Assembly (NCBI GenBank): GCA_019058365.1
Contig: JAHPZE010000001.1
Span: 288,001 to 352,000 of the forward strand
From: Promethearchaeota archaeon
Lineage (GTDB): Archaea; Asgardarchaeota; Lokiarchaeia; Sigyniarchaeales; SOKP01
Reading direction: 5' to 3'
Length of the DNA: 64,000 bases
The notes under the pieces: model-generated
Told to the model about the DNA's origin: nothing
Databases searched by the model: none
What the model saw: only the letters and a program-made list of their open reading frames with translations
In this document: positions 26,203-58,935 of the stretch, in pieces
How positions within the stretch are numbered: the stretch's first letter is position 1
Layout: every line of letters begins with the position of its first letter
Translations under genes and position numbers: made by a program

Positions 26203-26712
26203 TCATTGAGGTTTAAATCCATTATTCAAAATTATTTTTGTAGCCATCTTAGCAACTTTCCCTACAACAGTAGAACAATGTTCTATCATTCCTGATTTAA
26301 ATGCTTCTTTCTGCTCATCAGGATTCCAGAGATTATATGTCCTTCCCACCAGTTTCTCTTGAACGTCATAACATCTGCAGGATCCATATTTTTTTATATA
26401 CTTATCATGCAATTGCTTGACTAATTCATATGATTTCTCCGGTTTATACCTATCCTTAAAATCTTTACGTTCTCTTCCAAAAAAGTATCCAATTGCCATT
26501 GAAGCGCCCACTAAGGCACCACAAGAACCATCTCCGGTTAAACCTAAACCATCCGCTAAACCGCTTGCTGCTTTGAAAACATCTTCATTCCATATCCCCA
26601 ATGAATCAAAAATGGCCGCTATAGCAGTCTGAGAACATCCCGTACATTCTTTTTCGTATTGTTTTCCTAATTCAAATGCCTTTTTAACAATTTGTTCGTT
26701 CAATTCTATCAT
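26203..26712 (-). CDS. C_GCAxxG_C_C family putative redox protein
   Basis: GCSQT, GSCGALVGA, YGSCRC, EHC. Confidence 0.9.
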   Translation of the reverse strand: MIELNEQIVKKAFELGKQYEKECTGCSQTAIAAIFDSLGIWNEDVFKAASGLADGLGLTGDGSCGALVGASMAIGYFFGRERKDFKDRYKPEKSYELVKQLHDKYIKKYGSCRCYDVQEKLVGRTYNLWNPDEQKEAFKSGMIEHCSTVVGKVAKMATKIILNNGFKPQ

Positions 26713-29132: not shown

Positions 29133-30143
29133 ATGATGAGATTTGTTTCTGGCTTAAAGAATCTGGCAAAAAAGAGAATTTTATTAGGTATTATTGTTCT
29201 TTTTATCGTTTCTTGGTTTTTATTCACGTTTGGATTTAATGTGTTTTCAAATATCAAATTTAGTAAATATTTTTTAATATTTCTAGCGATTTTAGCTGGA
29301 TTTACATTTATTTTGTTCATTATATCATTTATTATACCTCTTGATAAAATGGGGGTAATAATAATTATTATATCAACAGTTTTGACTCTACCTGTTATGT
29401 GGATTTTTGGAAGGATTATTGAAATTTTTAGAATTTTTTGTTATGTTGCTAATATTGTTGTTACCGCATTTTTTGCCTTTAAATTTTGTATGGATACATC
29501 TACTAAAATTGATGATTACTTATACAAAAAAAAAGGGTCTAGAATATTTATACGGCCTATAGAATTTATTATTTTTTTCCTTCTTAGTTGGTGGTTTACA
29601 TCTTTAAGCATCAGATTTTTTGTTAGTTACCCTAATCCTGCCATACAAAGTTTAGCAAGGGTCTTTTTTGATTTATTCTTGGTAGGTTTAGCATTATTAG
29701 GTGTAGTATTTATTAGATTATTATTTACAAAGAAGTTTGCTGCATATATTTCCTTCTTTTATGTATTAACATTCTTTTATGTTTTCTATATTATTATTGA
29801 TCTTTGGGCAGTATTTATTTTTCTTGATACTGTGGGGTATGATCTTTTATCATTTTTCATTGATTTTCTTTTGTTTTTATATATAATTGGATCTATTTAT
29901 GAAAGAGTTGATTACATAAAAGAAAAACTTAAATTATTTAGAGCTGATACAATAGCTTTATTCGTAATTTTAATGAAACTTATAGTTCAAATTATAGATA
30001 TTTTAAGAGAACTTTTTCCTCCCGCTGATGTAGTACCAGGGTTAATACTTCAAGCCCAAATATTGTGGATTTTCTTTATGGTTTTTACACTGATAGTTGG
30101 AATATACACTATTTTTAGACATAAAGAAAGAAAAAGCTCCTAA
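29133..30143 (+). CDS. Hypothetical multi-pass membrane protein
   Basis: 336 aa, about 10 TM. Confidence 0.7.
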   Translation: MMRFVSGLKNLAKKRILLGIIVLFIVSWFLFTFGFNVFSNIKFSKYFLIFLAILAGFTFILFIISFIIPLDKMGVIIIIISTVLTLPVMWIFGRIIEIFRIFCYVANIVVTAFFAFKFCMDTSTKIDDYLYKKKGSRIFIRPIEFIIFFLLSWWFTSLSIRFFVSYPNPAIQSLARVFFDLFLVGLALLGVVFIRLLFTKKFAAYISFFYVLTFFYVFYIIIDLWAVFIFLDTVGYDLLSFFIDFLLFLYIIGSIYERVDYIKEKLKLFRADTIALFVILMKLIVQIIDILRELFPPADVVPGLILQAQILWIFFMVFTLIVGIYTIFRHKERKSS

Positions 30144-30227: not shown

Positions 30228-30494
30228 ATGAAAATGAGCGAAGCTAAGTTAAATCTAAAAAGGAACAGAATTTTTAAAAAATTGATGATATATCTTTTCA
30301 GTGTAATTAGCCTAGTAGCAATTATCATAATAGTTATCACACTATTTGTCAATGTGGTGAATAATGAAATGAATGATGGTGGTTGTGGTTGAGGGGGCTT
30401 CATATTCCCTCCTCAAATAATACATTCAGTGATAAATTATCTTGTCGATTATACTCTTAAGCAATCATATCTGCTCTCAATAATTTTAATATAA
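30228..30494 (+). CDS. Putative novel membrane selenoprotein, 88 aa (Sec55, GGCGUGG)
   Basis: In-frame TGA at 30390-30392 within D-G-G-C-G-U-G-G, open to TAA at 30492-30494; SECIS-like element starts 3 nt after the stop. Confidence 0.75.
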
Positions 30495-30496
30495 AA

Positions 30497-30563
30497 TCCG
30501 AAAGGAATGAAACTTGCTAAAAAAGATTGGTAGTAAGCAGACCCACCTCGCAATGGTTTCGGA
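30497..30563 (+). promoter_or_regulatory. SECIS-like element (3'-UTR, eukaryote/Loki type)
   Basis: Outer stem TCCGAAA/TTTCGGA; ATGA at 30507 and GA at 30540; inner stem CTTGCTA/TAGTAAG; A-rich loop; matches the element at 58829. Confidence 0.8.
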
Positions 30564-30657
30564 ATTAAGAAGATGAATTTTAAGAAAAACTCAATGAGTT
30601 TAATTTTTATAAAAAATAATATAAAATTTTAATATTTTAATTAATATTGAGTTAATT

Positions 30658-30810
30658 ATGGTAAAAGCAATATTATCAGTAAATGAAAGAAAAATTCCGT
30701 TAAAGGATTTCATGCAAGAGATGCTTACAAATATAATTCAGGGCTATTTAAAAACAACTAAAGGAGTTCCTGAAAACATTGAACATATTAAAATTGAAAT
30801 AGACCTATAA
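30658..30810 (+). CDS. 50-aa protein resembling the C-terminal domain of MobB-type proteins
   Basis: LSVNERKIPLKDFMQEMLTNIIQGYLKTTKGV..IKIEI. Confidence 0.65.
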   Translation: MVKAILSVNERKIPLKDFMQEMLTNIIQGYLKTTKGVPENIEHIKIEIDL

Positions 30811-56791: not shown

Positions 56792-58828
56792 ATGTCTGAG
56801 ATACAGACCATGGTGAGAATTGGAGTATATATCTGTAGATGAGGAGTTAATATCAGTACTTCTATCGACTGTGATCTTATTAGAGATTATGTTGAGGCCC
56901 TCCCAAACGTTATTGTTGCTAAAGTAAATGATTTTACTTGTAGCGATCCAGGACAAAAAATTATCAAAAACGATATTTTAGATTTAGACTTAAATCGAGT
57001 GGTTGTTGCAGCTTGTACACCTAAAATTCACGAATCCACCTATCGATTAGTTTTAGTTGAAGCAGGATTAAACCCATATTACTTCCAAATGGTTAATCTT
57101 CGTGAGCATTGTTCATTTACTCACTCGGGAAATAAGAGAAAAACTACTGAAAAAGCTATAAGGTTAGTGCAAGCAGGGATAAATCGTGCTAGAGAATTAG
57201 AGATAGTACCTTATAAAAAATTATCAGTAGAGAAATCGGTATTAATTATCGGTGCGGGTATTGCGGGAATGAATGCAGCATTAGATTTAGCAAATCAAGG
57301 AATAAATGTATATTTAGTCGAAAAAGAAGCTACAATTGGAGGTAAAATGGTACAATTAGATCGAATTTATCCCACAGACGATTGTGCTATATGAGTTCTA
57401 GCACCTATTATGGTTAGTACTTCAAAACATCCAAATATAACCTTATTTACTTGTAGTGAAATCATAAAATTTAGTGGCAACACTGGAAACTATAATGTTA
57501 TAATACACAAAAAAGCCCGGTATGTTAATGAAAGTAAATGCACGGGTTGTGGATTATGTACTACAAAATGTCCAATAAAGGTACCTAACGAATTTGATAG
57601 AGGTATGGGTGAACGAAGCGCAATTTACATACCTTTTCCCCAAGCAGTACCTAAGGTTGCTTTAATTGATAAGAGTGTTTGTATAGATTGCAAAAGTTGT
57701 GAAAAAATTTGTCCCGCAGAAGCTATTGACTTAGATCAAACCTCAGAATATATAGATTTAAAAGTTGGTGCAGTCATTATTGCAACGGGATGGGATGAAT
57801 ATCCAATTATGAAAAATAACGAATATAAATATGGTATTTATCTTGATGTTATTACTCAAATAGAATTGGAACGAATGTTAAGTCCAGTTGGACCAACTGG
57901 GGGTCATGTATGTAGAATTTCTGATGGAAAAATCCCAAAAACAGTCGCGATGATTCAATGCGTGGGTTCAAGATCCTTAAACGGGAATCCCTATTGCTCA
58001 GGAGTATGTTGTAATGTTGCACTTAAAAACGCTCAATTGTTAAAACATGAATATCCTGATATGGAAATTGTTATTTTTTATATAGATATGCGGACATGGG
58101 ATAAAGGAAATGAGGAATATTATAGAAAAGCGAGAGAAGCGGGGATAATGATGATTCGAGGAAAAGTAGGAGATGTAAGACAAGATCCCAACTTAAAAAA
58201 AATAAAAGTTACAGCTTCTTCAACTTTAACAAATGATTTTATTACAATGGATACCGATTTAGTTGTATTATCTACGGGAATGGTCCCCTCTAAAAAAACA
58301 ACACAAATCGTTGAGACTTTAGGAATTGCTAAAGATATAAATGGGTTTTTAACTGAAGTTCATGGATGCCTGAAACCTCAAGAGACAAATAATTTGGGTA
58401 TATATATATGTGGCTGTGCTGCTGGACCTAAAAATATCCCTTATTCCGTGTCAACTGCATTAGCTGCTGCAAGTAAAGCATCTACTTTACTCTGTAAAGA
58501 TACAATAACTCAAGAATTAATCATCGCTGAAGTAAATGAAAATTTATGTATGGGTTGCCATAGATGTGAAAAACTTTGTAATTATAATGCAATAAAAGTT
58601 AATAGAGAGAATATAGCTATAGTAGATGATTTAAAATGTAAAGGGTGCGGAGTTTGTGTATCATCATGCCCCGCTAGAGCAATTGATCTTAAATACTATA
58701 GAGATAAGCAAATTAGTGAAGAGATAAGAGGGATCTGTAGTACTGAACTTGAATATAAGGAAGAATATATTGAATCTATTGATCTTATTTGGAAAAAGAT
58801 TGAAGCATTAGCTCCTTATCAAACATAA
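56792..58828 (+). CDS. hdrA: Heterodisulfide reductase subunit A, selenoprotein with two Sec (U17, U201), 678 aa
   Basis: AGGTGA RBS then ATG 56792; TGA at 56840 in RIGVYICRUGVNI and TGA at 57392 in TDDCAIUVLAP, both at conserved Cys positions; joins ORFs 56999 and 57410 in one frame. Confidence 0.92.
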
Positions 58829-58899
58829 TCTGAAAAAGAATGATCCTCTTAAACAAATGTTAGTTGAGAGGAAACTAACCCATTGCATGGGTTTTCAGA
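58829..58899 (+). promoter_or_regulatory. SECIS-like element of hdrA
   Basis: TCTGAAAA/TTTTCAGA outer stem; ATGA at 58840; stem TCCTCTTAA/TTGAGAGGA; AAA in the loop; side hairpin CCCA-TTGCA-TGGG. Confidence 0.8.
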
Positions 58900-58935
58900 A
58901 AAATATAAAATAATAATTGATATAATTTTATATCA

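Follow-up and report, generated by a model that had tools for sequence, protein, structure and literature searches.

Is the in-frame TGA at codon 55 of a short membrane-protein frame an ordinary stop, or is it read as selenocysteine (Sec, U)? The question is raised by positions 30228-30494 of the window, by which we mean the whole 64,000-nucleotide stretch of DNA that was analysed. At this place the standard list of open reading frames (ORFs) gives a 54-aa stub alone (30228..30392). The earlier note, made without database searches, had described a frame with a transmembrane (TM) helix, an in-frame UGA preceded by 54 residues and followed by 33, and a SECIS-like element behind the stop, and had claimed a new selenoprotein family equipped with a SECIS of its own. 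The sequence reads as described and the claim held, on the grounds of TGA conservation, a coding signal, a SECIS model and the presence of Sec machinery.

We consider it very likely, with a probability of about 0.85, that 30228-30494 is a real, unannotated selenoprotein gene in which UGA is read as Sec to yield an 88-residue membrane-anchored product. The gene is present, its TGA is conserved, the frame beyond the TGA is under coding constraint, a SECIS follows and the genome holds Sec machinery. That Sec is actually inserted at codon 55 is an inference, in which our confidence is high; no data on expression or selenium incorporation exist, and direct evidence of selenium in the protein is thus lacking.

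Gene and reading frame

The host genome (G000, with the window at C16:288001-352000) comprises 4.74 Mb in 54 contigs with 29.5% GC; judged by its genes and relatives, it is that of a Lokiarchaeia-type Asgard archaeon. When the TGA is read through, the 88-codon product runs in the order MKMSEAKLNLKRNRIFKK, a 23-residue hydrophobic stretch, NVVNNEMNDGGCG, the TGA, 33 codons (GGFIFPPQ...SIILI) and TAA. The codons around the TGA are GGT GGT TGT GGT TGA GGG GGC, that is, G-G-C-G-U-G-G. The features of the gene are the following:

30228..30494, + strand: selenoprotein gene; ATG, 54 codons, TGA, 33 codons, TAA (88 codons plus TAA)
30228 and 30234, + strand: start codons, ATG and second ATG; the one at 30234 matches the family-conserved start and is possibly the true one
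30282..30350, + strand: TM signal-anchor helix, residues ~19-41, behind an N-terminus rich in K/R (7 K/R)
30384..30386, + strand: Cys53 codon TGT, partner of Sec at -2 (C-G-U); in other clades the partner Cys stands at +2 or +3
30390..30392, + strand: TGA codon 55, inferred to be selenocysteine, residue 55; TGA in 16/16 first-round homologues and the sole invariant column, n=33
30393..30491, + strand: C-terminal tail, 33 codons, amphipathic or hydrophobic, open across homologues; 19-residue hydropathy <= 0.87
30492-30494, + strand: TAA stop of the 88-codon ORF

The SECIS element

The RNA element begins two bases past the TAA of the 30228-30494 ORF, and its core lies 117 nt downstream of the UGA of codon 55. 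Its parts are:

30494..30568, + strand: Asgard type I eukaryote-like SECIS (36.1 bits with covariance model R1, trained without the candidate), fitting the type I criteria of Huang 2024 (PMC11227280)
30497-30503 with 30557-30563, + strand: lower stem, TCCGAA(A)/(T)TTCGGA
30507-30510, + strand: core ATGA
30511-30519 with 30531-30539, + strand: upper stem, 9-nt arms, 7/9 positions paired; the two mismatches adjoin the core
30520-30530, + strand: apical loop, 11 nt, A-rich, AAAAAGATTGG (RNA: AAAAAGAUUGG)
30540-30541, + strand: GA
~30543-30556, + strand: small 3' hairpin

The type I model of Huang 2024 (PMC11227280) requires a quartet core of the form GA_[G/A]A, an upper stem that is 7-15 bp long and has no more than two mismatches, and an apical loop of 8-20 nt with leading adenines. 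With ATGA, nine upper-stem positions (seven of them paired), an 11-nt loop and GA, the candidate meets these criteria. The 9/11/9 layout, the 3' hairpin and the UUUCGGA arm are common to the candidate, the SECIS of the Sec-hdrA gene in the window (58827-58902) and two frhD SECIS elements located elsewhere in the genome, so that the likeness to the Sec-hdrA element, also part of the original claim, was confirmed. Among these four elements the lower arm GGUUUCGGAAUU is near-identical, and the upper stems differ in sequence. The Sec-HdrA gene itself (window 56999-58902, + strand; …DDCAI-U-VLAP…) appears in the ORF caller's output as two pieces, 56999-57394 and 57410-58828, and its SECIS has an AUGA_AA core, not AUGA_GA.

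A model independent of the candidate carries the argument. The reference set of SECIS elements came from the Sec-HdrA, Sec-FrhD, Sec-SelD and Sec-PrxL genes of the same genome, identified via their known Sec motifs. When all seven known elements were aligned with MAFFT, the divergent ones came out misaligned, and R1 was therefore trained on three hdrA/frhD elements alone, with the candidate left out. In a search of the whole 4.7 Mb genome, R1 scored the candidate at 36.1 bits (E 0.0045) and gave eight matches in total: besides the candidate and the three training elements, these are a fourth frhD element, one weak match and two elements that follow other ORFs with a TGA. R1 misses the selD, prxL, hdrA_c and f6-type elements. 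A loose SECIS pattern descriptor was discarded as evidence, as its 858 matches in this genome showed it to be too permissive, and the covariance model was used instead. The stability computed by RNAfold for the candidate was not significant relative to shuffled sequence (z -0.65 and -0.92), which means that thermodynamics alone cannot validate the SECIS. A scan of the window with Rfam returned no family at gathering score; apparently, Rfam has no model for this SECIS type. The SECIS-like element at 30494-30568 is real and beyond chance, as the homologues described below also show.

Conservation of the TGA and of the SECIS among homologues

In a six-frame search of 60 relatives, 13 genomes of the same genus (G000 aside) gave a match with E <= 0.002, each with exactly one TGA (13/13). 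In the 16 full-length first-round homologues the TGA falls in one alignment column, preceded by an invariant Gly, and in an alignment of 33 sequences the Sec column is the only one without variation. R1 recovered a SECIS of 33-57 bits behind all 16 first-round genes, none of which had been used in training; in 15 of them a stop lies just 5' of the element, and in G035 the frame runs through it. In the genera g27, g28 and g29 the SECIS matches scored 30-43 bits, against a background of at most 20 bits; taken together, every homologue of family f1 that was examined has such an element, at 30-57 bits. The element also covaries: 11/20 pairs showed double compensatory changes, and 91% of the alignment cells were paired, against 30-55% when the partners were slid. 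An independent analysis with MAFFT and RNAalifold recovered both stems, with eight covarying pairs. The covariance search that the earlier note had proposed as a check thus found the SECIS both present and covarying.

A family profile found matches in 73/161 genomes of the class, and an in-frame TGA is present in 72/82 of the listed matches, all the strong ones included. The distribution is mostly confined to one taxonomic family (genus g1, 40/53 genomes; g28, 23/42; plus g27, g21 and g29), with two further members in another taxonomic family, f6. Homologues ending with TAA or TAG at the Sec codon would have spoken against the reading. The TGA is kept, and second copies of the gene in G119 and G121, which have TAA at this position, have no SECIS. 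In these copies TGA and SECIS were lost together, and they serve as an internal control.

Across the family the spacing from the UGA to the SECIS core ranges from 38 to 125 nt. In L058, L084 and L094 (G105, G147 and G124) the true stop is a second TGA located 1-8 nt before the AUGA core (14 nt in G105). In such members the same codon means Sec when 38-125 nt upstream of the SECIS and stop when beside it, offering natural evidence on how short the spacing between UGA and SECIS can be. Two other variants were observed: L063 (G099:C124) reads U-P-C-U, with two TGAs three codons apart, and L121/L122 (G006:C1) ends ...G-T-G-T-U-P-G-stop and has a SECIS with a GUGA core.

Coding signal beyond the TGA

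In a genome of 29.5% GC the frame after the TGA is open for 7-33 codons across the family, and tails of up to 33 codons are uninterrupted despite a TAA/TAG-rich composition. The family alignment reaches the C-terminus beyond the TGA. Among four close orthologues, the changes after the TGA number 0-1 at codon position 2 and 1-8 at positions 1 and 3; the dN/dS ratio for this segment was 0.29-0.63 in 5/6 pairs and 1.26 in the remaining one, all with few substitutions. The stretch downstream of the UGA is thus conserved and coding-like, the outcome that the new-family claim required.

Selenocysteine machinery and genetic code

The genome encodes SepSecS (480 bits, above cut-off), a SelB-like protein located 4.7 kb from SepSecS (240.9 bits, 1.3 bits below the bacterial cut-off) and a PSTK-like protein (151 bits, E 9e-44, below its cut-off). 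The same genome carries Sec-SelD, Sec-HdrA, Sec-FrhD and Sec-PrxL, each with its own SECIS. Neither ARAGORN, with default and lowered thresholds, nor the Rfam tRNA-Sec model returned a credible tRNA-Sec, only noise. According to Mariotti et al. (PMC4989117), the Loki tRNA-Sec has a 31-nt intron in its T loop. A reading by eye, guided by local GC content, gave one candidate:

C34:23029-23185, + strand: candidate tRNA-Sec, 79 nt upstream of SepSecS

The GC content of this candidate is 50%. Its acceptor stem has 9 bp, with G73 and a CCA encoded in the gene behind it, and it further shows a UCA anticodon in the loop CUUCAAA, a T stem GGAG/CUCC, an insert of ~30 nt in the T loop and one of ~35 nt in the D loop. 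It is possible that it represents an intron-bearing tRNA-Sec; it remains a hand-read, unvalidated candidate. Of the components whose presence was to be confirmed, SepSecS, SelB-like, PSTK-like and Sec-SelD genes were accordingly found, and the tRNA-Sec only in this tentative form. The co-occurrence of the family with SepSecS was uninformative, as SepSecS is present in 153/161 genomes of the class.

TGA terminates 336 of the 2364 long open frames of the genome (14%); it is therefore an ordinary stop codon here and has not been reassigned.

Protein architecture and the Sec/Cys motif

The product starts with a basic segment, crosses the membrane with a single strong TM helix and continues through a linker, both acidic and rich in Gly, to the Sec/Cys pair and an amphipathic tail. 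Its TM helix reaches a best 19-residue Kyte-Doolittle mean of 3.17, the linker after the helix contains two D/E and no K/R, and the tail, with a best 19-residue hydropathy of 0.87, stays below TM level. Across the family, most members carry 3-7 K/R ahead of the TM helix (the three with the shortest N-termini carry 2), the helix itself has a hydropathy of 2.5-3.4 within a hydrophobic stretch of 22-25 residues, the linker is acidic, lacking K/R in 33/36 members and having one in each of L069, L072 and L085, and the tails measure 7-33 residues and are mostly under TM hydropathy. As inferred from the positive-inside rule, we lean towards an N-in anchor that would place the Sec on the non-cytoplasmic side, 8-30 residues beyond the membrane. 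AlphaFold2, at low confidence (pLDDT 67), predicted a helix at residues 3-47, a disordered loop at 48-61 holding the motif, with pLDDT below 50, and a helix at 62-87. A thioredoxin-fold selenoprotein with CxxU/UxxC (PrxL, DsbA-like, AhpF-N or SelW-like) was considered and rejected, given the two helices and loop predicted and the absence of a Pfam match.

In most members the motif is G-G-G-G-U-x-C (UGC, UPC, ULC, UAC or UTSC). Six sequences, including the window gene, have C-G-U-G-[G/A] in place of U-x-C, and in the tree they form one clade (support 95/90) nested among the UxC sequences. The CxU motif that had been pointed out is thus present in this gene, and this part of the description held only in part: CxU is derived within a six-member subclade, and the family motif is U-x-C. 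In this clade the partner Cys was relocated, from +2 to -2, and not lost, an argument for the Sec/Cys pair being the feature under selection. A partner Cys occurs at +2, +3 or -2 in every fully read member except the G006 relative, where U-P-G-stop leaves no Cys near the Sec, unlike what an obligatory Sec/Cys couple would show.

Alternation between UGA and Cys codons, another of the checks proposed, was not found. When 1.84 billion representative proteins were searched with a profile, no convincing Cys homologue emerged, only stubs of 44-54 residues or full-length entries in which W stands for the TGA; P0037, a doubtful database entry, reads C-G-S-G-T-C. The family is likely to be Sec-only, and the customary criterion of pairing Sec with Cys homologues is consequently unmet. 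For the read-through protein, Pfam gave no family match at E <= 0.01 and NCBIfam nothing relevant at E <= 1.

Gene neighbourhood

Two genes flank the selenoprotein gene closely:

29133-30143, + strand: polytopic membrane protein, 336 aa, upstream; no Pfam/NCBIfam match; syntenic genus-wide, not beyond
30658-30810, + strand: 50-aa ORF, just downstream of the SECIS; conserved within the genus

The 50-aa ORF shows 72-98% identity across most of the genus and 48-70% in four more distant members, and is far better conserved than the selenoprotein, which evolves fast (36-42% identity, against 58-82% for its neighbours). The ORF has a weak likeness to the C-terminal ~45 residues of MobB/FeS-domain fusion proteins (NF011062, E 1.3e-5), with a score far under the cut-off. 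Unrelated genes surround the selenoprotein gene in g27, g28, g29 and f6, where FGGY kinase, TrmB, PGK, a methyltransferase and a xylose-isomerase-like protein are its neighbours. The use of the 336-aa protein and the 50-aa ORF as operon partners pointing to a function was rejected, since their synteny is limited to the genus; we read the selenoprotein gene as stand-alone, with a context that provides no functional clue.

Elsewhere in the window, 26203-26712 (- strand) encodes a C_GCAxxG_C_C family protein (PF09719, E 1e-24) in an ordinary, uninterrupted ORF. A 2026 review reports selenoprotein forms of this family in bacteria.

Proposed mechanism and alternative explanations

In the mechanism that we propose, the SECIS RNA in the 3' UTR would recode the UGA of codon 55 to selenocysteine by means of the archaeal machinery of this genome, with a SelB-like factor, Sec-tRNA made via PSTK and SepSecS, and selenophosphate supplied by SelD, and translation would continue for 33 codons to the UAA. 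The product would be a type II (N-in) single-pass membrane protein with its basic N-terminus in the cytoplasm; the flexible acidic Gly-rich linker would display the C53-G-U55 pair at the outer face of the membrane, and the amphipathic tail would probably lie on the membrane or dip into it. The pair may cycle between selenol/thiol and selenenylsulfide, making the protein a membrane-tethered site of redox chemistry or chalcogen exchange on the surface of an anaerobe cell. This function is inferred and has not been shown, and we would put the chances of redox cycling by the Sec/Cys pair slightly below those of its absence.

A possible alternative is that the protein is a real selenoprotein whose Sec is not part of a redox couple, and which would instead bind sulfur, selenium or thiophilic metals at the surface, or would release a short selenopeptide after cleavage of a signal peptide. 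In support of this idea, the Sec is apparently never replaced by Cys in the family, the G006 member has no Cys near its Sec, the linker is acidic and Gly-rich with small residues after the helix (NAG, NSG, SAE), and the sequence evolves at a rate (36-42% identity) found in many surface-exposed proteins. Against it stands the Cys at +2, +3 or -2 in all the other fully read members, relocated in the C-G-U clade, and the version with a cleaved signal is disfavoured by the hydrophobic stretch of 22-25 residues, which is more anchor-like. The redox reading and this one share the recoding of the UGA, and it is this recoding that the remaining two explanations deny. One of them takes the UGA for an ordinary stop at the end of a membrane peptide of 54 residues and ascribes the conservation further downstream to an RNA element, for instance a terminator or a regulatory hairpin. 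Gene callers do predict the 54-residue product, database entries are mostly fragments of 44-54 residues, and expression data are absent. We nevertheless regard this explanation as very unlikely: the frame after the TGA is open in every homologue that keeps the SECIS despite a composition rich in TAA and TAG, substitutions avoid codon position 2, the next stop always comes before the RNA element or overlaps its start (except in G035, where the frame runs through), the element covaries and matches the bona fide SECIS of known selenoprotein genes, and the copies in which TGA became TAA have also lost the element.

The other explanation, a genome-wide or local change of code by which TGA would specify Trp or another standard residue, finds support in the full-length database proteins P0002, P0003, P0004, P0007 and P0015, which show W at the TGA. 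It is all but excluded by the use of TGA as the stop of 14% of the long open frames and by the presence of the Sec pathway and of SECIS elements; the W in those entries most likely derives, as we infer, from gene calling with a table in which TGA is Trp. Recoding of the UGA to Sec is therefore the reading that we retain. A bolder version of it would see in this gene one member of a hidden layer of lineage-specific Lokiarchaeia selenoproteins invisible to homology-based surveys, with the family exposing selenium outside the cell on a Gly tether, perhaps for a chemistry in which sulfur cannot replace it, and perhaps as an archaeal functional forerunner or counterpart of the SelK/SelS of the ER membrane; we hold this to be unlikely.

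Other selenoprotein candidates

Several further genes were encountered during this work. The gene at C35:296897-297196 (+ strand; L019:1228-1527) encodes a 100-aa protein that begins with a basic N-terminus and a single TM helix and continues through an acidic Gly/Asp linker to D-D-D-C-F-U and a tail of polar residues. The SECIS behind it reaches 34.1 bits, and the protein is found in five genomes of the genus with one TGA in each. A relative of this type in G102 is a Cys form, C-N-C, that still has SECIS-like sequence in-frame. The profile of the family described above gives one match in G000, so that the C35-type protein goes undetected by it there. Other small TM candidates are a protein in G025 with C-K-R-U and a separate protein in G006 with A-C-P-P-U. 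The C35-type, G025 and G006 C-P-P-U candidates share a basic N-terminus, a TM helix, an acidic linker, a Sec near a Cys and a SECIS of their own; they differ from the family in having polar, not hydrophobic, tails.

The gene at C34:292076-292501 (+ strand; L017:1074-1499) encodes a 142-aa soluble protein with two adjacent in-frame TGAs (...P-D-S-G-C-U-U-E-K-V...) and no Pfam match. Its SECIS scores 39.7 bits, a paralogue is located at C34:290299-290703, and homologues occur in 48/54 genomes of the genus, both TGAs being present in 57/59 listed matches. This protein may possibly represent a second new selenoprotein family, with a Sec-Sec pair.

Significance and comparison with known systems

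A search anchored on the SECIS finds families that have no known relatives, and the discovery of one such family implies that Asgard selenoproteomes are undercounted. Current annotation pipelines cut this gene short or translate its TGA as Trp. Among prokaryotic selenoproteins it is unusual for a small membrane-tethered one seemingly never to exchange its Sec for Cys, and the shift of the partner Cys from +2 to -2 in one clade allows the need for selenium to be tested on natural variants. Furthermore, the family adds ~70 natural SECIS variants, which bear on how a eukaryote-type SECIS works without a known SBP2.

Seven Asgard selenoprotein families, found by homology and none of them eukaryote-specific, were reported by Huang 2024 (PMC11227280), and the SECIS-first search of Mariotti 2016 (PMC4989117) had found HdrA, VhuD, VhuU and PrxL only. 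In the published lists of archaeal selenoproteins that we searched, including a 2026 review, there was no family like the 30228-30494 protein. It is unrelated to the seven Asgard families, from which it differs in being tiny and membrane-anchored and not a subunit of a soluble redox enzyme.

Selenoproteins K and S of eukaryotes (SELENOK and SELENOS) are small proteins with a single TM helix near the N-terminus and a Sec in a Gly-rich, G-G-U-G-like context; the Sec is penultimate or nearly last, with 1-2 residues after it, in a long disordered C-terminal region exposed to the cytosol. By analogy, the window protein is likewise small, with one TM helix near its N-terminus and a Gly-rich context around its Sec. 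No match to the SELENOK/SELENOS families (SelK/SelG and Selenoprotein S) came up in Pfam at E <= 0.01, and NCBIfam gave no relevant match at E <= 1. In contrast to SELENOK/SELENOS, the window protein has 33 residues past the Sec (7-33 in the family), predicted to be helical, its charge bias would put the Sec on the non-cytoplasmic side, and the Sec has a vicinal Cys partner. The comparison with SelK/SelS drawn in the earlier note consequently stands as an analogy only, given the missing Pfam match, the residues after the Sec and the opposite predicted side of the membrane; the family is not a SelK/SelS relative.

The thioredoxin reductase of animals has a C-terminal redox arm with Gly-Cys-Sec-Gly. 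As in this arm, a close Sec/Cys pair lies in the window protein within a flexible, Gly-flanked segment, where a selenenylsulfide could in principle form; unlike it, the motif belongs to a peptide that stands alone, tethered to the membrane and without a flavoprotein domain, and its two residues are not adjacent but spaced as C-x-U or U-x-C.

The closest likeness concerns the recoding device, which is the same as in the known Asgard genes with a type I SECIS (HdrA, FrhD/VhuD, FrhA/VhuU, PrxL and SelD), with a stop-proximal SECIS in the 3' UTR. The candidate shares with the Asgard type I SECIS the AUGA_GA core, the 9-bp upper stem and the A-rich 11-nt loop, and with the hdrA/frhD elements of this genome the extra 3' hairpin and the UUUCGGA lower arm. 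In summary, the selenoprotein family is undescribed, and the mechanism by which its UGA would be recoded is of the known Asgard type.
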